DNA of 54,549 nucleotides from an uncultured Pseudomonadales bacterium (GCA_964586045.1 CAZPFY010000003.1:1-54549), one strand, 5' to 3'; shown: positions 5 to 49,974, numbered from the stretch's first letter. The notes: a model not told the origin generated them from the letters alone. Made by a program: numbers and translations.

Positions 5-78
5 GGGCCGATAGCTCAGCTGGTTAGAGCGTCGAGCTTATACCTCGAATGTCCCTGGTTCGAATCCAGGTCGGCCCA
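5..78 (+). tRNA. tRNA-Ile, anticodon UAU (reads AUA)
   Basis: Hand-folded cloverleaf: acceptor GGGCCGA/TCGGCCC, D arm GCTC..GAGC, anticodon arm TCGAG-CTTATAC-CTCGA (U33-UAU-A37), T arm CCTGG-TTCGAAT-CCAGG, discriminator A; CCA not encoded. Confidence 0.85.
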
Positions 79-117
79 CAAGAAGCGTGAGATAGAACAG
101 ATGTTAGAATAAGGATA

Positions 118-30789: not shown

Positions 30790-32055
30790 ATGGATAATAA
30801 ACCACAAAATAATATAGAAGAAAATTTGGATCCAAGAGATCATCGAGTCTTGGGGAGAGAGTTGGACTTGTTTACTTTTTCGGATACGGTGGGAAAAGGA
30901 TTGCCTCTTTGGACTTCGCGTGGAGCAACTTTTCGACGAGAGTTGGAAAGATTTGTGGTAGATACCGAGCTAGCTTGGGGATACCAACATGTTTACACGC
31001 CAGATATTGCCAAGATTGACTTGTATAAAAAGTCTGGACACTATCCTTACTACAAGGACACGATGTATGCACCGATTGATGTCGATGGTGAAGAATTTAT
31101 GCTTCGTCCAATGACATGTCCTCATCACTTTGAACTTTATTTGAGTAAACCAAGAAGCTATCGCGAACTGCCTATGAGAATTGCGGAGATGGCTAAGCTG
31201 TATCGCTATGAATTATCGGGGGTCTTGTCTGGACTTACTCGAGTTCGCTCGTTTTGTCTCGCTGACGCGCACATAATCTGTGCTGACGCAGAGCAAGCTC
31301 ACAAAGAGATTGCGGGGGCACTAGACCTTATCGACTATATGGCTGGGGTGTTTGGTTTGAAAATGGGAGAGAATTATAAATATCGATTGTCTTTGGGGGA
31401 TAGAGAAAATAAAGAGAAGTATTTTGATGACCCGAAAGCCTGGGAAGAATCTGAAGAGATACTGCGAAAAGTTCTTAAGGAAAGAAATGTGGAGTTTGTG
31501 GAAGCAAAAGACGAAGCAGCATTTTATGGTCCAAAAATCGATGTTCAAATGACCAAAATGAATGGCGTGGAGGAGACGGCCTTTACTGTTCAGTATGACT
31601 TTGTAATGCCCACCAGGTTTGATCTGAAGTTTGTTGATAATAATGGAGAGGAGAAGCGACCTTTGGTGGTACACCGATCGAGCATTGGAGCGATTGAAAG
31701 AATTGCCGCCTTTTTGTTGGAACATTTCAACGGTGCCTTGCCGGTTTGGCTTTCGCCGGTGCAAGTAAAAGTTTTGCCAATCTCAGAAAAGGTTTTTGAG
31801 TACGCCTTGGAAGTAACTGAGGCTCTTAAAAAAAGCGGTATTCGGGTGGAACTGGACAATGAATCTGAATCTCTCGGTAAAAAAATCCGTAATGCGGAAA
31901 GTATGAAAATTCCTTACATGATAATTGTGGGTGAAAAAGAAGCGGAAAATAAAACAGTTTCGCTGCGCGCTCGTGGACATAAGGATTTGGGAGTGATGAG
32001 TATTGGTGAGGTAGCTGAAAAAGTTGGCAAAGAAATTAAAGAAAAAACGATATAG
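30790..32055 (+). CDS. thrS: threonyl-tRNA synthetase, catalytic core plus anticodon-binding domain only (no TGS/editing domain)
   Basis: 421 aa starting at the core motif PRDHRVLGRELDLF; zinc-site MTCPHH, class II motifs, C-terminal anticodon-binding domain. Confidence 0.9.
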   Translation: MDNKPQNNIEENLDPRDHRVLGRELDLFTFSDTVGKGLPLWTSRGATFRRELERFVVDTELAWGYQHVYTPDIAKIDLYKKSGHYPYYKDTMYAPIDVDGEEFMLRPMTCPHHFELYLSKPRSYRELPMRIAEMAKLYRYELSGVLSGLTRVRSFCLADAHIICADAEQAHKEIAGALDLIDYMAGVFGLKMGENYKYRLSLGDRENKEKYFDDPKAWEESEEILRKVLKERNVEFVEAKDEAAFYGPKIDVQMTKMNGVEETAFTVQYDFVMPTRFDLKFVDNNGEEKRPLVVHRSSIGAIERIAAFLLEHFNGALPVWLSPVQVKVLPISEKVFEYALEVTEALKKSGIRVELDNESESLGKKIRNAESMKIPYMIIVGEKEAENKTVSLRARGHKDLGVMSIGEVAEKVGKEIKEKTI

Positions 32056-32056
32056 C

Positions 32057-33079
32057 ATGACCAGTGAACAAGTATCTACATTTTTGGTCGATAGACTAAA
32101 AAACCGTAAAGAGTACAGTTTGACCGGTGAAGATAAAGAACTTATAGAAGAAGGTAGAATTGTTGACTTTATTATTACTAGATTAACATCTGGAAAATAT
32201 AGAAAAAATAAATTAGATGAAGTATCTAGGGTGAATATTGAGAAAAGAGTTAGGATTCAGGTAGAGAATAATGAGCCAATTCGTTTAACATTTCCATTTG
32301 GTGGTTATAAAAATTATCAAATGCAAAGTTATCCACTAGTTGATTGGGCGGAGTTTTTTGTAGTGGCGTATTACTCTGACTACATGAATCAAATCGTGCC
32401 GTTTTACAAGCCAGGGGCAGTGCTTGAGTTTTGTAGCGATGAGATAGCTCTTGAGAAAATTGACAATGTCCCTTTGGATAAAACTCAAGATTACAATGAG
32501 TCATTTTCTAATCTTATTGCGTTGTTTTCAAAATTTTTACCTGATAATCTGGTAATAAAGCTGGTCAGAGTAAGAGATGTATACGAAAGCGAAGACGATC
32601 TTTGGGGAGAACTTGCAAAAGGAATGGAGATGACTAAAAGCAATTGGGATAACTTCGATGAAGTCAAAAAGGAGGGGAGAAAATCGATGTTTAAACTTAA
32701 TTATATTTTTCCTAATGGTGAAGGTTGGGAACAAATGAGCGAGAATGACAGAGGTGAGATGATGAGAAAAAATACATCCTTTCATGACGCTTATTTAGCT
32801 TTGTCAAAAAGAAAGCAATTGGTTCGTGGTGAAGATAAAATTGTTATCTTTCCGTTTCCTCTGCCCGATGCGGTTTCTTTGGGAAGTACTAAGTATTCAG
32901 TCGCTAAATTTTGGAGCGGTTATGGAGCTCTAAAAATAGTAAACGACCAAATTCAAGATTGCGTGATGTCTCCAGATAAGCTAGCCCTGACAAACTTTGA
33001 AGAGGTCGCAGTGAGCGGTATAGATTTGGTTGGATTTGACAAAATTAGGGTTTACAAAGATAACAAAAATACCATTTAA
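32057..33079 (+). CDS. PvcA/Dit1-like protein (isonitrile-synthase family), tentative
   Basis: Start set at ATG 32057, 1 nt after the thrS stop. IRLTFPFGGYKN...PLVDWAE...YKPGAVLEFCSDE resembles, from memory, PvcA IHFVLPAFPAKSPN...PLPDMAE...YAPGARLTICSDG. Confidence 0.35.
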   Translation: MTSEQVSTFLVDRLKNRKEYSLTGEDKELIEEGRIVDFIITRLTSGKYRKNKLDEVSRVNIEKRVRIQVENNEPIRLTFPFGGYKNYQMQSYPLVDWAEFFVVAYYSDYMNQIVPFYKPGAVLEFCSDEIALEKIDNVPLDKTQDYNESFSNLIALFSKFLPDNLVIKLVRVRDVYESEDDLWGELAKGMEMTKSNWDNFDEVKKEGRKSMFKLNYIFPNGEGWEQMSENDRGEMMRKNTSFHDAYLALSKRKQLVRGEDKIVIFPFPLPDAVSLGSTKYSVAKFWSGYGALKIVNDQIQDCVMSPDKLALTNFEEVAVSGIDLVGFDKIRVYKDNKNTI

Positions 33080-33080
33080 T

Positions 33081-33665
33081 ATGATGAAGATATGTTTGTG
33101 CAGACACGGGCAAACTACAGGGGATATAGAAGATAGATATGGCGGCGATTATGATGATCATTTGACCGATCTTGGTATTTCTCAGGCGCAGGCATTGGCA
33201 GATTCTCTAAAATCTAGGGGAATCGAGAAGATATTTGTGAGTCCACTGATAAGGGCTAGGGAGACGGCAGAAATATTGGGGCAAGTTCTCAATCTGGTTC
33301 CTGAAGTGATTCCGGATCTAAAGGAAAGAAATCGAAATGGGATTTTGACCGGGATGATCAAGTCGGAAGCAAAGGAAAAATACCCAGAAGTTGTTTCGGT
33401 ACTAAGTGATTACAGAAACGCTATTGAAGGAGCGGAAGGCTTGGATGACTTTGAGAAAAGGATAAACCGATCAATTGAGATGATTTCTAAAACTAATTAT
33501 AAAACCATTGTGATCGTGACTCACGGTGGGCCAATACTCACAATATTAAGGGCGATAGAGGACGCGCCAGATTATAAAATTGAGGATTGTGGATTTGCGG
33601 AACTATTGTCAGATCATGGAAAAATGACGGTTTCCAAACTAAATGGCATTACAAAGGTTGAATGA
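33081..33665 (+). CDS. histidine phosphatase family protein (phosphoglycerate-mutase-like)
   Basis: Start set at ATG 33081, 1 nt after the preceding stop; RHGQT catalytic motif, SPLIRARETA, THGG. Confidence 0.8.
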   Translation: MMKICLCRHGQTTGDIEDRYGGDYDDHLTDLGISQAQALADSLKSRGIEKIFVSPLIRARETAEILGQVLNLVPEVIPDLKERNRNGILTGMIKSEAKEKYPEVVSVLSDYRNAIEGAEGLDDFEKRINRSIEMISKTNYKTIVIVTHGGPILTILRAIEDAPDYKIEDCGFAELLSDHGKMTVSKLNGITKVE

Positions 33666-34453: not shown

Positions 34454-35659
34454 ATGGATAATGTCAAGAAAAAGGAATTAATTGAGTCCCTCGTCACTCG
34501 AGGAGTGGAAAATATTATTCCTAGTAAGGATAAGCTGTTGGAACTGCTTAACTCTGGGAAAACCTTAAACGTATATTTGGGAATAGACCCGACGGCTACA
34601 AGAATTCATTTGGGACATGCTTTTCCCTTGCGAAAGTTACAGATTTTGGCTGATTTGGGACATAATGTAACATTTTTGATAGGCGACTTTACAGCAAAAG
34701 TGGGAGACACTTCGGATAAAGAGACAGAAAGACCAGTGCTTACGGATGAAGAAATAAAGGTAAATTTTGAAACATATAAACGACAAGCAGAAAAGTTTTT
34801 GGATTTTGACAAAGTTAAAGTGCATCATAATAGTGAATGGCTTAGTAAGCTGAACTTTGGAGAAGTATTAAAATTGACACAAAACTTTTCTTTGAATGAC
34901 TTTATTGGTAGAGAGCTGGTTAAAAAAAGATTAGCAGAAGGTAAAAGAGTAAGCTTACCAGAAACTTTGTATCCAATAATGCAGGGGTATGATAGTTACT
35001 TTTTGGATACAGATATTCAACTCGGAGGAACTGATCAAACATTTAACATGCAAGCCGGAAGAACATTGCAGAAAAACCTAAGAGAAAGAGAAAGTTTTGT
35101 GATGGCTAACGGATTTTTGCCTGGAACAGATGGAAGAAAAATGAGTAAAACTTGGGGGAACGCTGTATGGATAGAGGATTCTCCTGAAGATATTTATGGC
35201 AAAATAATGTCCATAGCTGACGACGTAATTGGGACTTACTATGAAATGGGAACGAATGCTAAAACGGAAATAATTGAGGAGGCTAAAGAGAGATTGGCAA
35301 CAGGAGAAAACCCCATGATTCTAAAAAAGGAACTGGCAAAACTAATAGTAAGAGAACTGCACGGCTTTATGGCCGTAAAAACAGCAGAAGATCACTTTCA
35401 AAAAACAGTGGTGGAGAAAACTGCCGGTGAAGAAACAAAAGAAGTAAAGGTAGAATTTCCTTTGACGGTGATGGGAGGAGAGAATAGTTTGATGGCTATA
35501 CTTTTGGACAATAGATTAATTAGTAGTAATTCGGAGTTTAAAATTCTTTTGGCAGAAGGGGCTATATATATGGATGAAGTAAGGCTGGTTAGAGAGCAAA
35601 GTATACTTAAGCCTGGGGTGGTGAGAGTGGGGAAGAGAAAGTATTTGAAGTTGGTTTGA
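34454..35659 (+). CDS. tyrS: tyrosyl-tRNA synthetase (copy 1)
   Basis: 401 aa; YLGIDPT, HLGH, VGDTSDK, LYPIMQGYD, KMSKT, C-terminal S4-like domain; TAAAAT 7 nt before the ATG. Confidence 0.9.
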   Translation: MDNVKKKELIESLVTRGVENIIPSKDKLLELLNSGKTLNVYLGIDPTATRIHLGHAFPLRKLQILADLGHNVTFLIGDFTAKVGDTSDKETERPVLTDEEIKVNFETYKRQAEKFLDFDKVKVHHNSEWLSKLNFGEVLKLTQNFSLNDFIGRELVKKRLAEGKRVSLPETLYPIMQGYDSYFLDTDIQLGGTDQTFNMQAGRTLQKNLRERESFVMANGFLPGTDGRKMSKTWGNAVWIEDSPEDIYGKIMSIADDVIGTYYEMGTNAKTEIIEEAKERLATGENPMILKKELAKLIVRELHGFMAVKTAEDHFQKTVVEKTAGEETKEVKVEFPLTVMGGENSLMAILLDNRLISSNSEFKILLAEGAIYMDEVRLVREQSILKPGVVRVGKRKYLKLV

Positions 35660-35822: not shown

Positions 35823-37025
35823 ATGGAAATACAAACACTAAAAGGATTTAGAGATTTTTTGCCTGAAGAGGCAAGGAAGCGCCAGTGGGTGAAAAACAAA
35901 ATGATTGAGGTAGCTGAAAGATGGGGTTATGAACCGATCGAAACGCCAACCCTTGAACCATATTCGCTTTTTAAAGGAGAGGTTGGAGAAGACGAAAAAC
36001 TTTTTTATAAATTTGTCGATAATGGTGGGCGAGAGGTTATGCTTCGATATGACCAAACTGTGCCGACATGTCGTTTTGTGGCCAATAATTTAAATTCTTT
36101 AACTATGCCGTTTAGACGTTATCAATGTCAGTCTGTATTCCGTGCTGAGAATCCACAAAAGGGACGATATCGTGATCCTATTCAATTTGATGTAGATATT
36201 TATGGAATCGCTTCTCCAACAGCTGACGCTGAGGTTATGGCAGAAAATTTGGATACATATTTGAGCTTAGGATTTAAAAAACCTGTGGTTCTGTTAAATA
36301 ACAGAGATTTAATGAAAGAAATTCCTTATGAAGCAATCGTAGCAATAGATAAGCTTAAAAAAATTGGTAAAGACGGCGTTATACAAGACATGTTAAATAA
36401 GGGGATTGGAAAAATACAAGCAGATATGTATTTTGAACAAGTGCAAAATATAAAACCAGATGAAACGATTAATACAATTATTTCCTACTTGGAAAAATCG
36501 GGATTTGGTAAAGAATTTTACAGATTTGAGCCGACTCTGGCGCGTTCTTTTTCATATTCTCAAGGACCTATTTGGGAAATGGTAATTGAAGACTATACAG
36601 CTGGTTCTGTTGGTGGCGGTGAAAGATATGATGGTTTGATGGAAAGGCTAACTGGTATGAAAATTCCAGCGACAGGGATTGGTATGGGTTTTGATCGTAC
36701 CGTTGAGGCGGCGGATTTACTTGGATTGATTCCAACTACACAAACAAAAACAAAAGTTTTAGTTACTGCATTTTCCTCTGAGCAAAGAGATAAGGCTATA
36801 GAAACGGCATGTTATTTCCGTGCAGAAGGCGTTAACGCAGAGCTGTACCCTGAAGATAGCAAAATAGATAAGCAATTAAAGTACGGAAACAAAAAGGGAA
36901 TTCCTTATGTCGTAATTATAGGAGCTGATGAAGTGAAGGTTGGAAAAGTATCTCTTAAAAATATGAAGACAGGGGAGCAAGAGATGATAACGATCGAAGA
37001 AGTGATGAAAAAATATCTTGATTAG
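35823..37025 (+). CDS. hisS: histidyl-tRNA synthetase
   Basis: 400 aa class II; RYDQTVPTCRF, FRAENPQKGRYRDPIQFDVDIYG, GGGERYD, C-terminal anticodon-binding domain. Confidence 0.9.
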   Translation: MEIQTLKGFRDFLPEEARKRQWVKNKMIEVAERWGYEPIETPTLEPYSLFKGEVGEDEKLFYKFVDNGGREVMLRYDQTVPTCRFVANNLNSLTMPFRRYQCQSVFRAENPQKGRYRDPIQFDVDIYGIASPTADAEVMAENLDTYLSLGFKKPVVLLNNRDLMKEIPYEAIVAIDKLKKIGKDGVIQDMLNKGIGKIQADMYFEQVQNIKPDETINTIISYLEKSGFGKEFYRFEPTLARSFSYSQGPIWEMVIEDYTAGSVGGGERYDGLMERLTGMKIPATGIGMGFDRTVEAADLLGLIPTTQTKTKVLVTAFSSEQRDKAIETACYFRAEGVNAELYPEDSKIDKQLKYGNKKGIPYVVIIGADEVKVGKVSLKNMKTGEQEMITIEEVMKKYLD

Positions 37026-38464
37026 AAATTATTAATTATTTGTTGATGAATTTCTTTTGTTTTTTGTAATAGTGTTTTGGTTCCTTTGTTTGGTTTGAGG
37101 ATAATTTTAGGTATGCCATTTTTAAATACAATGTGAGAGCCTAGATAACCAAATTCTGTTTGAGTTGAAACTCTATTAATTTTTGAACTTGATATATTAA
37201 GTATTGATTTTATGACTGATACTATTTCGTGAACTGGTCCGAACCTTGTTCTCTCAGTATGTTTTCTTATTTCTGGGGAATAGTTTTTTACAAAGTTTAA
37301 AACCTTTAAGTTTGTCGTTGGGAAAAGAAGATTTTTCTTGCGCTTTACAATAATTATTTTGTCTCCATGTTCACCAATCACATCAAAACCTTTTTGTTTT
37401 TGGACTTTGAGTCTACTATAGTCCAACCCAAGACCTACTCCATATATCTGATGAGATGAAAGTGAAAAGTTGCTTGATTTGAGAAGTGTTGACGCGAGAA
37501 TGTCTACGGGATTTGTAACTACAAGTATGGTTCCAGCAAAGGATCTTAGGGATTTGGGAGAGAATAAATGTTTAATAGCTTCAGCGTTAGTTGAGAATTT
37601 GTTGAACCTTTCGTTGTCTGATTTGACATTTACAGGCGGATTGGGTGAATTAAAACATATAACAACGATATTGCTCTTCCTTAGCAATGAACTAGATGAT
37701 TTATATATAGTAATTTTCTTTCTTGGATTTGCGCTTTTTAGATCCAGAACTATTGATTTTAGTCTTAATATATTTCTTGAGTACAAATTAATATTCTTTA
37801 TCCAATTTTTACCAACTAGTAGGTTCGCCAGATCTTGACCAATTGTTCCTACCCCAATAATGCCAATTGTTTTTTTAGGACTCCAATTAATACTTTTTAT
37901 TAAATGAAGAAACCATTTTTGAGGAGTGCTTCTGTTTCCAAGACACAAATGCTTGTCAAAAATTTTTTTAAAAATTTTCTTGGAAGTTTTTCTTATAAGA
38001 GTTTTCTTATCGATATCTGGAATTGCTTTGTAATAAATTTGAAGTAACTCCTTTCTTGTACTTTTGAAAACATCTCGAATATCTTCTGGTATTAAAAAAA
38101 TAATTTGATCTACTTTAGACTTTGTTTTTAATTTGTTTTTGTCTCTATAATTTATGTCTCCGGCATATATATTATTATTTGTTACCCAGGTGGCAACGAA
38201 GTCGTTTGCAAGAATCTTGAATCCAGATTCTTTAAATATTTCTGATAAAGTAGATTTCCCTGATTTTGAAGGACCTGATATTAAATAACATCTTTTCCCA
38301 TTTGTAATCAAAGTTGAATGTAATACTAGATATTTTGAAGAAATTTTTCGTGTAATTTGAAGCCTAATGCCTTTTTTTTCTTTGGCAGAAAGCGTCTTTT
38401 TGTTCAAATGAAACCTAAACATTTTTTTTGTTCCAGCAATAGAAAACAAATGTATGTAGGTCAT
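37022..38464 (-). CDS. fusion protein: N-terminal HprK-like P-loop domain plus C-terminal lactate/malate dehydrogenase-like domain
   Basis: 480 aa; LISGPSKSGKSTL P-loop; IGIIGVGTIGQDLA (Rossmann), VVTNPVDILA, LDYSRL, IGEHGD (LDH/MDH catalytic His); much lower G+C and K/N/I/S-rich composition compared with neighbours. Confidence 0.55.
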   Translation of the reverse strand: MTYIHLFSIAGTKKMFRFHLNKKTLSAKEKKGIRLQITRKISSKYLVLHSTLITNGKRCYLISGPSKSGKSTLSEIFKESGFKILANDFVATWVTNNNIYAGDINYRDKNKLKTKSKVDQIIFLIPEDIRDVFKSTRKELLQIYYKAIPDIDKKTLIRKTSKKIFKKIFDKHLCLGNRSTPQKWFLHLIKSINWSPKKTIGIIGVGTIGQDLANLLVGKNWIKNINLYSRNILRLKSIVLDLKSANPRKKITIYKSSSSLLRKSNIVVICFNSPNPPVNVKSDNERFNKFSTNAEAIKHLFSPKSLRSFAGTILVVTNPVDILASTLLKSSNFSLSSHQIYGVGLGLDYSRLKVQKQKGFDVIGEHGDKIIIVKRKKNLLFPTTNLKVLNFVKNYSPEIRKHTERTRFGPVHEIVSVIKSILNISSSKINRVSTQTEFGYLGSHIVFKNGIPKIILKPNKGTKTLLQKTKEIHQQIINNF

Positions 38465-38534
38465 TTATATCGATATGTTATCACGACTTATACTGAATGT
38501 TGACTTTTGAAATAAAAGATATATGATCAGTTTA

Positions 38535-38816
38535 AAGCTTAGAAGGAGAGAAAGTAGGCTTCCTTGGTGACACAAGAGAACTCGTGGCTGGTGAAAGCGA
38601 GTCGAACAAGGTGAGTTGAATTACCCTCTGGAGCAGATCTAGCCAAACTAGATACGGATTCTAACCGTAAAGTAGAAAAAGTATGTCACCCAAAATAGGG
38701 TAACGGAGTACTTATTAAGTCTGGAGCTGTGAAGCTCTAGAAATGCAAGGTGGTACCGTCTTGTTAAAAGACCCTTGTCTAATCCTAATTTTATTGGGGT
38801 TTGACGAGGGTTTTTT
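38535..38816 (+). promoter_or_regulatory. T-box riboswitch leader
   Basis: Promoter TTGACT (38500-05), 16 nt, TATGAT (38522-27). Stem I has an AGUA/GAA S-turn, AGAGAA bulge and GGUGAAAG distal loop, followed by Stem II/III hairpins. Antiterminator CAAGG-UGGUACC-GUC..GAC-CCUUG (38746-76). Terminator ACCCUUGUC/GACGAGGGU plus U5 (38771-38816). Confidence 0.85.
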
Positions 38817-38848
38817 GTTATCAATATATTACTTAAATAAACATAAAA

Positions 38849-41146
38849 ATGGAAAAACTAAGAAGGGTTGATCAAATTTCGACTCACGAAGTGGAGAACA
38901 AGATTTGTGAGATAAATGCCAGAAAAGAGCTAGTGTTCAAAGCTGGGCTATTTTCTGATGACAACAATGACGAGTTCAAAGTTGTTTTGGGTAATGGAGA
39001 AGAGGTGGGTATTTTTAAAACTTGGGCAGTTCCTGTCATCCCAATGCTCGAAACTGGTAGTGGGAGAGAAATATCGTGGAATGAACTCGAGATGTGGAAA
39101 GAAAGAATGAGAGCAAACCCAGTACTACTATGGGAAACGTTGGAAAAGTGGAGGAGTAGAACCGAAGCTGACGACAGAAGGCTTTGTATCATATTTAACG
39201 AGAGAGAACTTCCGAAGGGAAAAGTTGATCGAGTTAGTGAATTAGCAATGAGATTGAAAATTGCTTTTGGAAGTGCGTCTCCGTTTTACCATATTGAAGC
39301 GATGGTGGGCGATGGTAATTTTACGCCAGGAAATCCGTTTGTTGGAGATTTGGGGACAGGACAAGAAGGTGGTTTCTTGGATATGGCGGGGATGCTGTTG
39401 CCATCTGCTTTGGGTGATATGGTAAAGGCAGAGAAGTTAAACTGGAACTCTCTGGACTGGGAAAAAATCAAGAAACAAGTAGATCAAAACTCAGATATTT
39501 CAAGAATGGCTGCTTTGATGCGAATTGCACGGGTGGCTGGCCTAAAGACTGAAGAGGTTCTTTTTGCGGCCAATGCGCTTGAATGGATTCCTGTGAGTGT
39601 GGGTGGGAAAAAGGGTGACTTGCCTGAAGAACTGGCGATGCAAGAATTGCTATCAAGTGACATCAGAAAAGAAAAGCTAACTTTGGGGGCAGTGGCCAGA
39701 GATATGAATGGATTGGTGCGTTTCTTGAACTGGACTCCATTAGTAATAAATGAAGTTAATTTTACTCACGCTGCGTGGTGGAAGTACGCAGCTGTTTGCG
39801 AAACTTCAAACCAGATAATTGAAGAGTTGTCGGATGGTTCATTAATTGTCCCTGAGCATAGACAAGAGTTCTTGGAAGTGGTTTTGCCACAGTTAAAGAA
39901 TTTGGATGCTTCCTCGGCAAGGGGGAGATTTGCTCTATGGATGTTGGAGAATGGCTGGTTGGATAAAAGTATTCTCGAAAGATTGGGTAAATTGGAAAAC
40001 AGAATGGTTGGCGAGGTGGCAAAAAGAATGGTGGGGTTGGAAAAAGACAATGAAGTTATTAAGTTGGGAGAAAGTAACAATCGTTTCTTGGTGGGTGGAA
40101 AAGCAGCTGGTTTAGGTGAAGTGGCTGAGATATTTGGAAAAGAGTTTGTTGGAGATGCGGTGGTTGTAACTAGTGAGTGTGTCACTAGATGGTTGAACGA
40201 TCAAGGTAAATTGCAAGAGCTGGTCAATCAATTGGTCAAAGAAGAAGATGTAAATAAAAAATTACGTTTGGCAGAAAAGATTAGAAGCGGTTTGGCTAGA
40301 CTAGTGTTTTCGGATATAGTTGTGGATAAGGTTGTGGGTCAAATCAAAGGTTCTTCTTTTGCGGTTCGATCATCGTCGTTTGATGAAGACACCTTGGTAA
40401 ATGGAACAGCAGCGGGAATTTATGAGAGCGAGATTGGGGTTACAAGAGAGGAGCTGGGGGTAAAACTAGTAGAGGTAATAAGCTCGTTTTTTTCTGAGAA
40501 AGCGGTGAGTTACAGACACTTGCACGGATTGTCAGATGAGCCCGTGTTTGCAGTTGTAGTTCAAGAATACATATCTGGTAGTGGTGGAGTGGTTTTTTCA
40601 AGTGGAAACAGTCGAGATTGGTCAGTTTTTACAGGTGAAACTCCCGGTCATGTGGTGGGAGGTGAAAACAAATTTGATTCGGAGACTGTTGAGAATGGAA
40701 AACTTGAAAGTAATGTGAGATTTGGTTGGGTAGATCCAGAAATTATGTCCCAGATTGGAAATATGGCGATACTGGCAGAGACCGTATTGGGAGGAAAAAC
40801 TGATATGGAGTTTGTGGTAGGTGAAAAAGGAGTCAGGATTTTGCAGCTAAGAATGTTAAATTCGGCTGAAGAGAGAGGTGGTACCAAAAAGCGACCTGCG
40901 GAGAGATGGTATGAGTTGCGAGGAGGTTCTGATATAAGTGGTGTAATTTTTCAGGAATCCTCTGTAGGGTTGGTGCTTGCTGAAGATATAAATATTGATC
41001 AGTTTCAAGGAGAGCTTTTTCGGTGTCTGATAAAAAATAAAGATAAGGTGTCTGAGCTAAACTTACCTCATAGAATCCCGCAAACTAGCCACTTTGCCAA
41101 TATATGTCTGAACTTGGGTATAAAATTATCTTTTAGAAATGAATAA
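38849..41146 (+). CDS. unknown N-terminal region (~400 aa) fused to a PPDK_N-type (PEP/pyruvate-binding) ATP-grasp domain
   Basis: 765 aa; C-terminal half has VGGKAAGLGE, FAVRSSSFDEDT, FFSEKAVSYR, AVVVQEYISGSGGVVFS; no swivel-His or PEP-utilizer C-terminal domain; first gene after the T-box. Confidence 0.6.
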   Translation: MEKLRRVDQISTHEVENKICEINARKELVFKAGLFSDDNNDEFKVVLGNGEEVGIFKTWAVPVIPMLETGSGREISWNELEMWKERMRANPVLLWETLEKWRSRTEADDRRLCIIFNERELPKGKVDRVSELAMRLKIAFGSASPFYHIEAMVGDGNFTPGNPFVGDLGTGQEGGFLDMAGMLLPSALGDMVKAEKLNWNSLDWEKIKKQVDQNSDISRMAALMRIARVAGLKTEEVLFAANALEWIPVSVGGKKGDLPEELAMQELLSSDIRKEKLTLGAVARDMNGLVRFLNWTPLVINEVNFTHAAWWKYAAVCETSNQIIEELSDGSLIVPEHRQEFLEVVLPQLKNLDASSARGRFALWMLENGWLDKSILERLGKLENRMVGEVAKRMVGLEKDNEVIKLGESNNRFLVGGKAAGLGEVAEIFGKEFVGDAVVVTSECVTRWLNDQGKLQELVNQLVKEEDVNKKLRLAEKIRSGLARLVFSDIVVDKVVGQIKGSSFAVRSSSFDEDTLVNGTAAGIYESEIGVTREELGVKLVEVISSFFSEKAVSYRHLHGLSDEPVFAVVVQEYISGSGGVVFSSGNSRDWSVFTGETPGHVVGGENKFDSETVENGKLESNVRFGWVDPEIMSQIGNMAILAETVLGGKTDMEFVVGEKGVRILQLRMLNSAEERGGTKKRPAERWYELRGGSDISGVIFQESSVGLVLAEDINIDQFQGELFRCLIKNKDKVSELNLPHRIPQTSHFANICLNLGIKLSFRNE

Positions 41147-41873
41147 AATTAAAGAAGAAACTATAAAAAAAGTTGGAGAAGCAGCTGTGAAGTTGGATTG
41201 GGAACTGGCTTTTGGCGGTAAGTCATATGGCAATAGGCATCTGTTTAGGGTAAACAAAATTGCAAAGTTCTTGCAGAAGAAAGAGGGGGGGGATTTGGAT
41301 ATTGTACTTTTGGGAGCTTGGGTTCATGATGTAGCTCTGGTAGCGGGAAGTGATTATGAACAAGATCGGGTAAGGATGGAGACAACAAAGTTCTTGCAAA
41401 AGTTTGATGAACTTGATGAAGTTATAAAAGAGAAGGTTGTATTGTGTGCTGTGGAACACGAAAGTGAGAGTGAGGTGGCATCAATAGAAGCTAAGATTGT
41501 TCATGATGCGGATGCGCTGGATAAATGTGGTCCCTTGGGGGTAATAAGACATATTTGGAAAATGACAAATATGTTGGAAAACCATCCCCTGACAGAAATT
41601 TCTGACTTGAGTAATCTTGAAAAACATTTGGAAAGTAGGAGAGTAAATTTGCAAACTGATTTTGCCAAAAAGATTGCCAAAGATCTTAACATCTTTGCGG
41701 TATTATTTTTTGTAAATAAGGATCACGCCTTGAAACAAATGAAGGAAATTTCTCGTCTGGCTTGGGAGGGAAAAACTTCTGATAAGATTGCAGAAAGGTT
41801 GGTAAAAAATAACAAAGGTAGTTGGTTTGATGAATTAAAGAAGCAGCTTGACACCGGTATGGTTGAGGTATAG
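41139..41873 (+). CDS. HD-domain phosphohydrolase
   Basis: 244 aa; H..(GAWVHDVAL)..(IVHDADALDK) HD-superfamily pattern; start overlaps the upstream stop (ATGAATAA). Confidence 0.7.
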   Translation: MNKIKEETIKKVGEAAVKLDWELAFGGKSYGNRHLFRVNKIAKFLQKKEGGDLDIVLLGAWVHDVALVAGSDYEQDRVRMETTKFLQKFDELDEVIKEKVVLCAVEHESESEVASIEAKIVHDADALDKCGPLGVIRHIWKMTNMLENHPLTEISDLSNLEKHLESRRVNLQTDFAKKIAKDLNIFAVLFFVNKDHALKQMKEISRLAWEGKTSDKIAERLVKNNKGSWFDELKKQLDTGMVEV

Positions 41874-41922
41874 GATACGTCAAGATGATAAATAGTTATT
41901 ACTATTTTATTGGTAGTATTTG

Positions 41923-41955
41923 AAAAAAGGGCACCGGTTGGTGCCCTTTTTTTTT
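41923..41955. terminator. strong intrinsic terminator after the T-box operon
   Basis: A6-GGGCACC-ggtt-GGTGCCC-T9. Confidence 0.8.
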
Positions 41956-43467: not shown

Positions 43468-44712
43468 ATGAAAGAAAAACAATACGAAGAACTTAGGTCG
43501 GGTTTGGAGGAAGAGATTACAGTACAGACAGTGTTAGAACGAGCAGTGTTTGATGTTTTACCTGACAAGGAAGGGGTTGCACGGTTAATGGAAGAGAGAC
43601 CAATAAAATTGTATTTAGGGATCGACCCCACTAGTCCAGATTTGCATGTAGGCCATGCGGTACCGCTTCGAAAGTTGAAGCAGTTTCAGGATTTGGGGCA
43701 TGAGGTAACTCTGTTGTTTGGAACTTTTACTGGGAAAATTGGAGACCCAACGGATAAGCTGGCAACTAGGAAAAAGCTTAATGATGGACAAATAGAAACC
43801 AATATTGCAACATATATTGAGCAAGCAGGGAAAATATTAGATTTTTCTGATCGAAGCACTAATCCAGTAAAAATTGTTTATAACGAAGAATGGTTGGGTA
43901 GGATGAATTTTGCTGAGGTGGTGGAGCTAGCTTCAAATTTTTCGGTTCAACAGATGTTGGAGCGTTCTATGTTTCAGGAAAGAATAGCAACCAAGAAACC
44001 TTTGTTTTTGCATGAATTACTTTATCCACTTATGCAAGGAATGGATTCTGTAGCTTTGGGGGTAGATTTGGAGATAGGTGGTAGTGATCAGATTTTTAAT
44101 ATGTTGGTGGGAAGAGATTTGATGAGAAAACTGTCTAACAGGGAGAAATGGGTGATGGCTTTGAAATTGATTGAAGATCCAAACGGAAGAAAGATGGGAA
44201 AAACCGAAGGGAACATTGTAAATGTTATGGATCCTGCCTCTTGGAAATATGAGGCGATGATGACATGGCCAGATGGAGCTATTCCTGTCGGTTTTGAGCT
44301 GTTAACAAACTTGGAAATGCGTATGGTTGACGATTTGAAAAATGGATTGATGGGGGGTGGAGTGGATGTGTTGGAGGCGAAACGAGCAATGGCATACAGA
44401 GTTGTTGCGGAATTTGATGGTGAAGAAGCTGCTGTTATGGCGGAAACAGAGTTTGATTTGGTTCATAAAAATGGCGAGTTGCCGAGTGTAATTAAAAATT
44501 CGCTAATTTATCCCGACTTTGATCTGTATCGCACTTTGGTTTCAAGTGGTTTAGTGAGAAACTATGAAGAAGCCAAACAAGTAGTATCAAACAGATCTGT
44601 GTTGGTTGATAATGCACCAGTGAAGGCTAGTTTTAAAGATTGGAGAAATGGCCAGGTATTAAGTATCGGAAGAAAGGTGATAAAAAATTATAGGAGAATA
44701 GTGATTACCTAG
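43468..44712 (+). CDS. tyrosyl-tRNA synthetase paralog (copy 2)
   Basis: 414 aa; YLGIDPT, HVGH, IGDPTDK, LYPLMQGMD, KMGKT, S4-like C-terminus; Tyr-binding residues (Y34, D78, Y169, Q173, D176 equivalents) appear retained. Confidence 0.85.
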   Translation: MKEKQYEELRSGLEEEITVQTVLERAVFDVLPDKEGVARLMEERPIKLYLGIDPTSPDLHVGHAVPLRKLKQFQDLGHEVTLLFGTFTGKIGDPTDKLATRKKLNDGQIETNIATYIEQAGKILDFSDRSTNPVKIVYNEEWLGRMNFAEVVELASNFSVQQMLERSMFQERIATKKPLFLHELLYPLMQGMDSVALGVDLEIGGSDQIFNMLVGRDLMRKLSNREKWVMALKLIEDPNGRKMGKTEGNIVNVMDPASWKYEAMMTWPDGAIPVGFELLTNLEMRMVDDLKNGLMGGGVDVLEAKRAMAYRVVAEFDGEEAAVMAETEFDLVHKNGELPSVIKNSLIYPDFDLYRTLVSSGLVRNYEEAKQVVSNRSVLVDNAPVKASFKDWRNGQVLSIGRKVIKNYRRIVIT

Positions 44713-48746: not shown

Positions 48747-49974
48747 ATGAAAGAGGGAGAGATTTTGAGACCATGTAAAGAGTTTGTTCATCGACCTGAG
48801 GATTTTATGGTGGATAGAGGTGGAATGATAATGGAAGCACTGATTCTGGCAATGACAGTTCATGATGGAGAAAAAAGAAAAACGCCACCATATGAAGATT
48901 ATGTGGAACATTGTGTGGCTGTAGCTAGTATTTTGGAGAGTTGGGGAGGAAGTAACGAGGAGGAACTAGTAGCGGCGTTGCTTCATGACTCTATAGAAAA
49001 TCATCCAGACCTGATAAGCCTTGAGAATATTAGAGAGTTTTTTTGGAGACAGAGTGGCTTTTTTGGTAGATGGAGTAACGAAATTAAAATTGAAAGATAG
49101 AGGAAAAAGTGAGTTTGAGACGATGCGGAAGATAGCGAGAGATAGTTTGATTGATGAAGGGGTGGCCCGGTTGAAACTTGCTGATAGAGTACATAACATG
49201 ATGACGATGGAGGGAATGAAGCCGGAGACGCAAATAAAGAAGGCCAGAGAAACGCTGAAAGTTTATGCTCCTTTGGCCTTATCCTTTGGGGTGTGGGAAG
49301 TGAGAAATCTATTACAAGACCTGTCTTTTCCTTATTTGGATGCGGAAAGGTACTGGAGAGTAAGAAGCGAAGTGGATGGCGACCTTAGGCTACGAGCTGA
49401 TTTTGTAAACGAAGTGGAGAAAATGATTGAAACAAATTTGATAGAAGCTGGGCTGAAAGTTGAGGTGAACCATGTAATTGGGGGATATTTTGAGATTGCT
49501 GAGAAACTTAAAAAAAGGAAATGTAATCTTGACGAAATAAATGAAGTGATAAGTTTTAGGGTGCTACTTACGGATATTAATAGTTGTTATGAAGCGATGA
49601 CGGTGGTGAGGTCTAGGTTGTTGGGATCTTTGGTTGGCGAGATGCATGTTGACTATTTGCAGAAAAGCGCGGTTAATGGCTATAGTGCCTTGGAGGACGT
49701 TTATGAGTTTGGAGAGGGAAGAATTGAAATTTGTTTTACGACGAAAGAACGAGAAAAAGTTAATCAGTGGGGGTTTGGTAAAGAAACCAGAAGAAAAGTC
49801 ATATTTACTCCAAAAGAAGAATTGATATTTTTGAAGCCAGAAGCAACGGGTTACGATTTGGTTAATAAACTGGAAAATGTTTTGAGTAAAGAAGTAATGG
49901 CGATAGTAATAGAAGGTGTTATTTGCGATCTGGGTACAGTGCTTCCCAACGCGAGTTTGGTGGAGATAATATAA
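48747..49974 (+). pseudogene. Rel/SpoT homolog (HD hydrolase plus degenerate synthetase domain), interrupted by a +1 frameshift in a T7 run
   Basis: ORF 48747..49100 carries the HD motif (PYEDYVEHCVAVASIL, AALLHDSIEN). ORF 49021..49974 continues with FGDRVAFLVDGVTKL and a RelA_SpoT-like fold. The frames can only be joined at ttttttt 49038-49044. Confidence 0.7.

Follow-up and report, generated by a model that had tools for sequence, protein, structure and literature searches.

The leader of a two-gene unit in the window, by which we mean the whole 54,549-nt stretch of DNA analyzed, is a genuine class I transcriptional T-box. Together, this tyrosine T-box and the kinase-like enzyme/phosphatase pair that follows it point to an undescribed tyrosine-linked phosphorylation step. 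The module belongs to a conserved gene cluster that is tyrosine-linked and specific to Patescibacteria, a group whose acquisition of amino acids is, to our knowledge, largely unexplained. The finding widens the T-box regulon beyond genes for aminoacyl-tRNA synthetases (aaRS), biosynthesis and transport to a kinase/phosphatase module. Sequence alone seldom reveals what an uncharacterized gene product acts on, and T-box specifiers are one of the few hints of this kind (PMC7778990); here the specifier assigns tyrosine to a new-fold protein family confined to Patescibacteria. The original prediction of a T-box-controlled operon is supported by the analysis, none of its three refuting conditions having been borne out, with refinements that concern the specifier, the swivel-His domain, the exchangeable HD partner and the source organism, which is a Patescibacterium.

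The T-box leader and its conservation

The leader was compared with the Rfam T-box model RF00230, as had been proposed, and it matched the model over its full length (1-219 of 219) with 84.1 bits (E=8.2e-19 for the leader, 8.1e-17 window-wide). Because the curated gathering score of this model is 93, a default gathering scan misses the leader. The orthologous leaders scored 82-100.6 bits, and that of L001, at 100.6 bits, clears the gathering score. The sub-threshold score of the window leader is likely explained in part by an insertion of about 36 nt relative to the Rfam model, which contains a hairpin that is kept in close relatives. The features of the leader are listed below; the three Stem I motifs, the antiterminator and the terminator were read from the sequence, while Stems II, IIA/B and III were placed by alignment to the RF00230 consensus.

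38500-38527, + strand: promoter-like -35 TTGACT, 16 nt, -10 TATGAT (consensus match at 10 of 12 positions)
38531-38779, + strand: T-box leader, RF00230 match
38537-38634, + strand: Stem I, with basal GC/GC pairs and lower helix GGAG (38545-38548)/CUCU (38626-38629)
38553-38556 and 38618-38620, + strand: Stem I S-turn, AGUA/GAA
38575-38580, + strand: Stem I AG bulge, AGAGAA
38585-38597, + strand: Stem I distal loop, UGGCUGGUGAAAG
38622-38624, + strand: specifier UAC (Tyr), with unpaired C38625 between it and the lower helix
38635-38653, + strand: Stem II
38654-38668, + strand: Stem IIA/B element
38685-38704, + strand: lineage-specific hairpin GUCACCC/GGGUAAC, within the insertion
38720-38740, + strand: Stem III
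38746-38777, + strand: antiterminator, A1 CAAGG/CCUUG, A2 GUCUU/AAGAC, 7-nt bulge UGGUACC at 38751-38757
38767-38816, + strand: intrinsic terminator, ACCCUUGUC...GACGAGGGU plus U6 at 38771-38816, which competes with the antiterminator for CCCUUG

The elements that had been read by eye, which were the promoter, the Stem I motifs, Stems II and III, the antiterminator with its UGGU bulge and the mutually exclusive terminator, were thus all located. The promoter is a match to the consensus of a kind that is not enriched over shuffles (7 promoter-type sites found, 9.5 expected). In Stem I, compensatory changes were present in 19 of the 21 pairs among 20 leaders, and across about 20 related leaders 9 of the 24 terminator pairs also had them. 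The antiterminator had 96.4% of its cells paired and 4 pairs with a compensatory change, values that were reached by none of 500 shuffles. The covariation of Stem I and of the terminator, together with the antiterminator pairing relative to shuffles, shows that the T-box anatomy did not arise by chance.

The same layout is seen in the Bacillus subtilis tyrS T-box leader, where Stem I likewise carries an S-turn, a UAC specifier, an AG bulge and a distal loop, and where Stems II, IIA/B and III, a UGGU bulge for A73, and competing antiterminator and terminator are also present. The leader described here differs from it in its occurrence in Patescibacteria, in having C instead of a purine behind the specifier, in the spacing of GAA and UAC, which is one nucleotide longer, and in the insertion of about 36 nt. 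The genes under its control also differ, being those of a dikinase-like/phosphatase operon and not tyrS.

The specifier codon

Two specifiers, UUA (Leu) and UAC (Tyr), had been considered for this leader; comparison of the related leaders indicates that UAC is the codon read and that UUA is not. UAC was found in at least 20 of the 23 readable leaders. The codon of a T-box specifier is anchored from its 3′ side (PMC2879506, PMC7778990), and the UAC of the window leader occupies this canonical frame. The specifier region of L032 and L058 reads GAA-A-UAC-C, so that UUA is replaced by AUA and UAC is kept, and in L092, which reads GAA-AU-UAC-C, UAC is still 3′-anchored while UUA is shifted. The tRNA-Tyr(GUA) genes adjoining orthologous loci carry A73, which is the discriminator required by the UGGU bulge and had been anticipated in the original prediction. 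The canonical frame, the retention of UAC where UUA is lost and the A73 of the neighboring tRNA-Tyr genes therefore indicate a tyrosine specifier. Against this reading counts a three-member subclade (L001-3), in which the region is GAAUUAACC and UAC is lost. The window itself is without its own tRNA-Tyr gene, and A73 was read from the orthologous loci. The residue 3′ of the specifier is not the usual purine, being C38625 in the window and C in most relatives, while it is A in L005, L006, L027, L031 and L035. A purine after the specifier is a conserved T-box feature, though not a universal one.

The retention of ACC or ACA in every leader, L001-3 included, where C and A are synonymous, and the presence of a ThrRS gene 7 kb upstream could suggest that the T-box senses tRNA-Thr through this codon, which lies flush against the lower helix. 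This reading is very improbable, however, since its frame is non-preferred, with no unpaired residue behind the codon (PMC7778990), the tRNA-Thr genes of L032 and L058 carry U73, which is mismatched to UGGU, an isoacceptor switch would be required, and the gene context is Tyr-specific. The sensing of tRNA-Leu via UUA right after the S-turn GAA can hardly be credited, because, although most leaders have UUA behind the S-turn and a purine comes next in L001-3, UUA is lost or shifted in L032, L058 and L092, which all keep UAC, the specifier is anchored on the opposite, 3′ side (PMC2879506, PMC7778990), UUA constitutes only 1% of Leu specifiers in TBDB (PMC7778990), and the cluster is without any Leu-related gene.

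The 765-aa protein and its hydrolase partner

The two-gene unit and its closing terminator were found as the original prediction had described them, with an overlap of 8 nt between the two ORFs.

38849-41146, + strand: 765-aa ORF, first gene of the unit
38849-40054, + strand: N-terminal domain, residues 1-402, all-alpha and acidic
40055-40864, + strand: PPDK_N-type ATP-grasp, about residues 403-672 (Pfam PF01326, 78.3 bits)
40886-41146, + strand: C-terminal segment of about 85 residues with His748 (codon 41090-41092) in a TSHFANIC motif, probable degenerate swivel-His domain
41139-41873, + strand: HD phosphohydrolase, YpgQ/YedJ-like (Pfam HD PF01966, 34.8 bits; cut-off 22)
41922-41953, + strand: intrinsic terminator, 14-bp stem with 6 GC pairs and a T-run

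The N-terminal domain is, in a confident AF2 model (pLDDT 88.5), a new all-alpha fold without a known structural or sequence relative. Searches of Pfam, NCBIfam, PDB sequences and, with Foldseek, PDB structures found no relative (best Foldseek PDB E=0.27), including any known aaRS, transporter or biosynthetic module, identities that had been named for checking; Pfam and Foldseek PDB also showed no homology to the PEP/pyruvate barrel or to the RPH/HpeH substrate domain. Among 1.84 billion representatives just 95 clusters contain this domain. Its charge (pI 4.9) argues only weakly against tRNA binding.

Foldseek with the whole chain gave ATP-grasp proteins and no others, the top matches being RPH (5hv1, E=3.6e-12), PEP synthase (2ols), HpeI (9goj) and PPDK; RPH was also the best NCBIfam match of the protein. 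The invariant ATP-grasp residues are K418 (GGK), R507-S-S (RSS), and E654 and Q666 (E...Q). The swivel-His domain had been thought to be absent, but this claim was not confirmed, as His748, located 17 residues before the C-terminal end, is invariant even in the most divergent members. In these members bridging motifs such as TTSHLASIARQFGI come near the canonical GGxTSHAAIxAR. When the C-terminal segment was aligned to swivel-His domains by hhalign, the register was correct and the match weak (E=0.003, probability 10%; range 3-10%), while PF00391 was not detected in these 85 residues and searches of PDB sequences and profiles were negative. The segment is probably a degenerate swivel phosphohistidine domain. 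Should the histidine instead be non-catalytic, the protein would be an ATP-grasp ligase or an acyl-phosphate-forming enzyme, as the missing PF00391 match and the low hhalign probability might be taken to mean; we consider this quite unlikely given the invariance of His748, the resemblance of the bridging motifs to the canonical one, the placement of the motif near the C-terminus as in the RPH family, and a phosphatase partner that suits phosphotransfer. Moreover, PPDK_N-type ATP-grasp domains are not known outside His-swivel enzymes.

The 765-aa protein shares this ATP-grasp domain with RPH (5hv1) and PEP synthase/PPDK, and a TSH-type His near the C-terminus with RPH. The domain order is different, as the putative substrate domain precedes the ATP-grasp and the His in the 765-aa protein, while in RPH it lies between them; this domain is of the unrelated all-alpha fold, and the putative His domain has degenerated so far that Pfam does not recognize it. 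The two-component small-molecule dikinases HpeHI, PpsAB and CreHI, which have an RPH-like ATP-grasp and a swivel His, phosphorylate phenolic hydroxyls (PMC12167813). In contrast to these catabolic enzymes, the 765-aa protein is single-chain and, being T-box-controlled, of a biosynthesis or homeostasis type. The phenolic chemistry of these dikinases would fit a tyrosine-linked substrate. In the Hpe pathway a phosphatase acts downstream.

The best PDB matches of the HD protein were 2pjq (1.2e-9) and 5dqv (1.5e-7), with the metal ligands H...HD...D aligned. It is similar to YpgQ/YedJ-type proteins (5dqv, 3gw7, 2pjq; E=1e-9 to 1e-7) in this metal site and in its length of about 240 aa, and differs from them in its translational coupling to a dikinase-like gene. 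Of the 39 loci at which the gene downstream of the 765-aa ortholog could be assessed, 29 have an HD gene there, and in other lineages its place is taken by another hydrolase, so that the coupled gene belongs to one of four unrelated, mutually exclusive families: HD, PP2C/SpoIIE, His_Phos_1 or metallo-beta-lactamase (MBL) fold. A hydrolase partner is thus obligatory, and the fact that it is always a hydrolase, though drawn from unrelated families, speaks for a module of kinase and phosphatase. Beyond Patescibacteria, the gene contexts of HD homologs gave no useful information. What counts against this reading is that a kinase and a phosphatase encoded together would leave no net chemical change, except where another step lies between them or the pair serves in trapping.

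Distribution and gene neighborhood

The leader was found upstream of 765-aa-gene orthologs at 34 loci besides the window. In the proposed survey of co-occurrence, 42 non-redundant loci could be assessed; a T-box preceded the ortholog in 24 of them, and in 16 of 16 at identities of at least 38%, where all of the orthologs are from Patescibacteria. A genome-wide scan with the 15-mer CAAGGTGGTACCGYC returned mostly chance matches in unrelated phyla, and its output had to be filtered with the leader profile before it was of use.

The recurring neighbors of the orthologs are TyrRS paralogs, of which the cluster carries two or three, tRNA-Tyr, a PLP decarboxylase and an M20 hydrolase, and the operon of L011 includes prephenate dehydratase. 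Part of the TyrRS adjacency may reflect general aaRS clustering, because the window lies in an aaRS-rich region. tRNA-Tyr genes that lack a variable arm are also present in the cluster. The enterococcal and lactobacillal tyrS-tdcA-tyrP tyramine cluster likewise combines a Tyr T-box with an additional TyrRS and a PLP decarboxylase; here, however, the T-box is not on tyrS, and the decarboxylase, with 98 bits in TIGR03811, is far below the enterococcal TDC cut-off of 905. No antiporter or transporter was seen among the window genes adjoining the operon, and PADLOC gave no defense-system match.

Proposed mechanism

We consider it rather probable that the operon encodes a His-swivel-type phosphotransferase and a phosphatase, which act on a tyrosine-related substrate to restore Tyr-tRNA charging. 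The T-box would read tRNA-Tyr through the UAC specifier and the pairing of its UGGU bulge with A73-CCA, and the free 3′ end of uncharged tRNA-Tyr would stabilize the antiterminator, allowing RNA polymerase to pass the terminator into the operon. The first gene would encode, as one chain, a phosphotransferase akin to the His-swivel dikinases, with ATP bound by the ATP-grasp domain, His748 as the proposed phosphoryl carrier and the family-specific N-terminal domain as the proposed acceptor binder, while the HD protein would hydrolyze the phosphorylated product or an intermediate. In this picture we infer that phosphate is carried as phosphohistidine, that the substrate is related to tyrosine and that the pair works in this physiological direction. 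The idea that such an acceptor is phosphorylated in dependence on ATP and His748, and that the partner undoes this step, is directly testable. More tentatively, with a chance that we put well below even, the enzyme and its interchangeable phosphatase could be a new ATP-driven phosphorylation/dephosphorylation route that supplies or recovers tyrosine in bacteria unable to make aromatic amino acids, in which a "tyrosine (or 4-hydroxyphenyl precursor), water dikinase", to give one example, would capture a phenolic substrate, or they could be part of a larger tRNA-Tyr-centered system with the paralogous TyrRS and the tRNA-Tyr genes that lack a variable arm.

An unlikely alternative is that the phosphoryl group goes to a protein, or to the enzyme itself; the pair would then form an Enzyme I-like phosphorelay or regulatory switch, driven by ATP, that acts on TyrRS or a different factor, with the partner as reset phosphatase. 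PP2C/SpoIIE and His_Phos_1 (SixA-like) proteins are typically protein or phosphohistidine phosphatases, and pairs of a kinase and a PP2C within one operon are common in signaling, but with HD (YpgQ-like) and MBL partners, small-molecule or nucleotide substrates are more usual. The neighboring LDH-fusion gene weakly matches HprK-related kinases, but this match is far under the cut-off, and no HPr-like acceptor was found. It is more improbable still that the enzyme phosphorylates, and so inactivates, a natural TyrRS inhibitor in the manner of rifampin phosphotransferase, with the T-box sensing the charging defect and the extra TyrRS being resistant paralogs. Such a role would be consistent with RPH as the closest solved structure and best NCBIfam match, with the TyrRS paralogs of the cluster and with the logic of induction; however, the N-terminal domain is not related to the rifampin-binding domain of RPH, the cluster is broadly conserved alongside metabolic enzymes, and a dedicated phosphatase would reverse the inactivation.

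Other T-box leaders in Patescibacteria

Our literature searches on T-boxes with CPR, Patescibacteria or PPDK_N found no report of Patescibacteria T-boxes, and a search on dikinases, Patescibacteria and tyrosine returned nothing related among titles and abstracts. No T-box lies ahead of either TyrRS gene in the window or of those in the related loci. The Tyr T-boxes of L169 and L138 lead other first genes, which encode proteins of 341 aa and 597 aa, respectively, that are unrelated to the 765-aa protein and have no Pfam or PDB match. T-boxes of Patescibacteria also precede ordinary genes, such as that of ArgRS.

Identification and conservation of the T-box leader

The intergenic region 38465-38848, which lies between a divergent gene (37022-38464, minus strand) and the ORF of the 765-aa protein (38849-41146), was searched with RF00230, the Rfam model of T-boxes. 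This Infernal search had been proposed as a check on the original prediction of a T-box at this site. With permissive filters the whole model (positions 1-219) matched nucleotides 38531-38779 with 84.1 bits, at E-values of 8.2e-19 for the leader searched alone and 8.1e-17 for the whole window, in which it was the only match to RF00230. This score is under the curated gathering score of 93, and the default Rfam scan of the window reported two tRNAs only, without the T-box. The alignment contains an insertion of about 36 nt after Stem IIA/B, which holds a hairpin (38685-38704), and the middle helix of Stem I is weak; together these two features likely explain the sub-gathering score. The individual elements that had been read by eye were each found where they had been placed, including promoter-like hexamers, the AGUA/GAA S-turn, AGAGAA and the distal loop of Stem I, the antiterminator CAAGG-UGGUACC-GUCUU/AAGAC-CCUUG, and a competing terminator with a U-run. 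The two ORFs described as coupled indeed overlap, by 8 nt, and the strong terminator proposed to close the unit is present at 41922-41953.

Among the genome and metagenome loci compared here (numbered with the prefix L), Rfam identified a full-length T-box directly 5' of the orthologous gene in L001-L006 (82-100.6 bits), and the leader of L001 exceeds the gathering score. An nhmmer profile built from these leaders detected the T-box in 34 loci besides the window. After de-duplication it was present in 24 of the 42 non-redundant loci having enough upstream sequence; the original prediction would have been refuted if orthologs never carried one. By protein identity, these were 16/16 loci at 38% or above, 7/12 at 33.5-38% and 1/14 at lower identity. 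In 20 distinct leaders, compensatory changes were observed in 19 of the 21 Stem I pairs, and nine pairs covaried in the terminator. The antiterminator as specified was 96.4% paired with four covarying pairs, values reached by none of 500 shuffles, and it vies with the terminator for one strand, CCCUUG. Judged from this sequence comparison, the window leader is to be regarded as a functional, conserved transcriptional T-box.

Specificity of the T-box for tyrosine

On its 3' side, the specifier loop of the window reads GAA-U-UAC-C, with the lower helix CUCU after it, which had left two options, UUA (Leu) and UAC (Tyr, 38622-38624). According to the NMR study of B. subtilis tyrS, the specifier is located at the 3' end of the loop strand with a single unpaired residue after it, and the number of other loop nucleotides is variable (PMC2879506). 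The TBDB rule likewise looks for the specifier first at positions 2-4, starting from the bulge's 3' end, and the database gives UAC for 99% of Tyr T-boxes and UUA for 1% of Leu T-boxes (PMC7778990). By this 3'-anchored rule the window specifier reads UAC. UAC was present in at least 20 of the 23 readable leaders; L032 and L058 contain GAA-A-UAC-C, which keeps UAC and loses UUA, and in L092 (GAA-AU-UAC-C) UAC is still anchored at the 3' end despite a 5'-side insertion. Additionally, tRNA-Tyr(GUA) genes adjoin the module, i.e., the 765-aa gene and the overlapping hydrolase gene (41139-41873), in nine loci; in L004 and L031 they lie immediately 5' of the leader. All have A73, which UGGU requires. 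Hence, the Tyr option was upheld by the 3'-anchored rule, the comparative leaders and A73, while the Leu option was lost with UUA in L032 and L058. A Thr codon, ACC/ACA, read in the +1 frame would fit every leader, but the tRNA-Thr genes of L032 and L058 have U73. In the subclade of L001, L002 and L003 the leader has GAAUUAACC instead of GAAUUACC (L001:4100-4125, and the same leader position in L002 and L003), which abolishes UAC and gives AAC (Asn) by the TBDB rule; this 12-mer is identical in the three diverged genomes. Overall, it is very probable that the leader works by the standard T-box mechanism and is specific for Tyr.

Some of the tRNA-Tyr(GUA) genes adjoining the T-box lack the V-arm and are 71-74 nt long (L004:5417-5489, L005:3833-3903, L026:4066-4137, L027:2820-2893, L031:4416-4488), while L042:8076-8163 and L050:3450-3535 are normal class II tRNA-Tyr of 86-88 nt. 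The V-arm-less genes retain G1-C72 and A73, which is different from the V-arm-less tRNA-Tyr reported from CPR bacteria, where the pair is C1-G72 (PMC5370408). A tRNA-Ile with anticodon UAU is located at window 5-79; a 'Plastid-ycf2' Rfam match antisense to it (49.3 bits versus a gathering score of 65.7) is probably the same tRNA seen from the opposite strand.

Gene neighborhood of the module

The module is recurrently surrounded by one to three TyrRS paralogs, tRNA-Tyr, a group II PLP decarboxylase, an M20 hydrolase, a P-loop/LDH-like domain fusion and a TrpR-like protein. In L061 the module, decarboxylase, LDH-fusion and TyrRS follow one another in one direction, and the L011 order runs from TyrRS through the module and an ORF of 241 aa to prephenate dehydratase. 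TyrRS adjoins the module even in the T-box-less loci L010-L012. The window contains two TyrRS genes:

TyrRS paralogs in the window
34454-35659: TyrRS paralog, TIGR00234 match
43468-44712: TyrRS paralog, TIGR00234 match

These paralogs share 36% identity, and the residues that bind Tyr are conserved in each. In a further TyrRS copy, L001:7439-8614, HIGH is changed to HIGR, KMSKS to KMSSS and the Tyr34 equivalent to Phe. Genes for aaRS are unusually crowded at 25111-51951 of the window (ArgRS, two class IIb, ThrRS, two TyrRS, HisRS and one class IIa), which tempers the argument from TyrRS adjacency and leaves that from tRNA-Tyr untouched. The ThrRS has 421 aa and matches only positions 165-564 of 565 in TIGR00418 thrS, its N-terminal region being absent, and a short RelA/SpoT-like gene is located at 49021-49974. 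The gene diverging from the T-box promoter (37022-38464, minus strand) encodes a protein of 480 aa in which an N-terminal P-loop domain, weakly matching HprK-related kinases, is fused to an LDH/MDH-like NAD domain; this gene recurs in the cluster of L005, L006, L019, L027, L060 and L061. At 32024-33665, just 5' of TyrRS_a, a 351-aa ORF matches the tyrosine-modifying DIT1/PvcA family at a score under the threshold (22.8 versus 26.4 bits). This ORF and the beginning of a gene for a His_Phos_1 phosphatase (128.9 bits) overlap.

Domain structure of the 765-aa protein

There were 53 full-length relatives of the 765-aa protein (E <= 5e-69), none of them informatively named; the few that had a name in their source were called 'hypothetical protein'. 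From these, 13 genome and 46 metagenome loci were retrieved. The genome loci are mostly labeled Patescibacteria (Collier-, Woese-, Roizman-, Gracili- and Saccharibacteria or 'Patescibacteria group'), while four MAGs were labeled Gammaproteobacteria as binned (L006, L007, L011, L074).

The sole Pfam match was PPDK_N (residues 414-586), and the best NCBIfam matches, rifampin phosphotransferase (RPH) and PEP synthase, were far under cut-offs. An AlphaFold2 model obtained with 34 homologs (pLDDT 86.8, pTM 0.86) matched RPH (E=3.6e-12), PEP synthase, HpeI and PPDK in a Foldseek search of the PDB. The N-terminal region of about 400 aa, which the original prediction could not place, has no structural neighbor in the PDB by Foldseek (best E=0.27, TM <= 0.15) when its 402 residues are modeled separately (pLDDT 88.5), nor a match in a profile search of the PDB. 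In an exhaustive profile search this domain was found in only 95 clusters of 1.84 billion representatives; the full-length proteins among them are nearly all 690-910 aa, 10/10 divergent members scanned carry PPDK_N, and the domain is acidic (median pI 4.9).

The swivel-His domain had been considered missing, which is probably wrong. His748 is invariant in the motif ...RIP(R/Q)TSHFANIC.NLGIKL..., 17 residues before the C-terminus, and its equivalent is kept in the most divergent members, some of which are nearer the canonical motif, e.g., TTSHLASIARQFGISF. In the RPH family GGxT(S/C)HAA... is located at most 50 residues from the C-terminus (PMC12167813). The AlphaFold2 model predicts strand, helix, strand, TSH-helix and strand in the C-terminal segment. 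This is the order expected of a swivel domain. Alignment to the swivel domain with hhalign placed the motif in the right register, but with E=0.003 to 0.013 and probability of 3-10%, and Pfam detected no swivel domain in this segment. On balance, the sequence and the model suggest that a C-terminal swivel-His domain is probably present.

Partner hydrolases and the proposed reaction

An HD protein (PF01966) is encoded directly 3' of the 765-aa gene in 29 of the 39 non-redundant loci that could be assessed; that of the window is related to YpgQ, YedJ and lp_2664. In eight HD-less loci (L007, L008, L010, L028, L030, L032, L058, L037) a PP2C/SpoIIE-family phosphatase of about 247 aa is coupled downstream, while the coupled partner is His_Phos_1 in L011 (41.3 bits) and a metallo-beta-lactamase-fold hydrolase in L034 (78.6 bits). 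One slot is thus taken by hydrolases of four unrelated families, of which three are phosphatases, and these are never found together, a distribution which reads as non-orthologous displacement. Such interchangeable hydrolases suggest that the 765-aa enzyme makes a phosphorylated species needing hydrolysis, and the partner slot is the strongest indication of a phosphorylated product.

The favored reading is that phosphate would be transferred from the ATP-grasp domain via His748 to an acceptor, which would be a tyrosine-related substrate, and that the partner would hydrolyze the product. Such an enzyme would resemble the small-molecule dikinases, which phosphorylate phenolic hydroxyls and for which substrate capture was suggested as a possible role (PMC12167813). 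The PP2C and SixA-like partners could also fit a phosphorelay or a protein substrate. Less probable readings are that the enzyme inactivates an inhibitor of TyrRS in the manner of RPH, or that it is a ligase acting without phosphohistidine. As a variation on the dikinase theme the regulated module is undescribed, and its putative acceptor domain is new.

Other T-boxes in Patescibacteria

The riboswitch adds a new member to a known class, and literature searches found no report of T-boxes in its phylum, the Patescibacteria. Further T-boxes were found in these bacteria, including some before ordinary targets, where a small GNAT-like ORF is followed by an ArgRS or ArgH-like gene, or where LysX/ArgC-like genes follow:

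Other T-box leaders in Patescibacteria
L089:7180-7296, minus strand: T-box before ArgRS
L070:2178-2377: T-box before ArgH-like gene
L074:1752-1946: T-box
L103:2116-2199: T-box before LysX/ArgC-like genes
L169:1673-3013 (Collierbacteria PFUC01000071.1): Tyr-type leader and gene region, unannotated 341-aa protein
L138:2283-2659, minus strand: Tyr-type leader of an unannotated 597-aa protein (gene 382-2175)

In the last two cases, near-identical Tyr-type leaders precede proteins other than the 765-aa/HD pair. In L169 the 341-aa gene stands where the module would, with the same flanking genes (TyrRS_a on the 5' side, PLP decarboxylase and TrpR-like on the 3' side).
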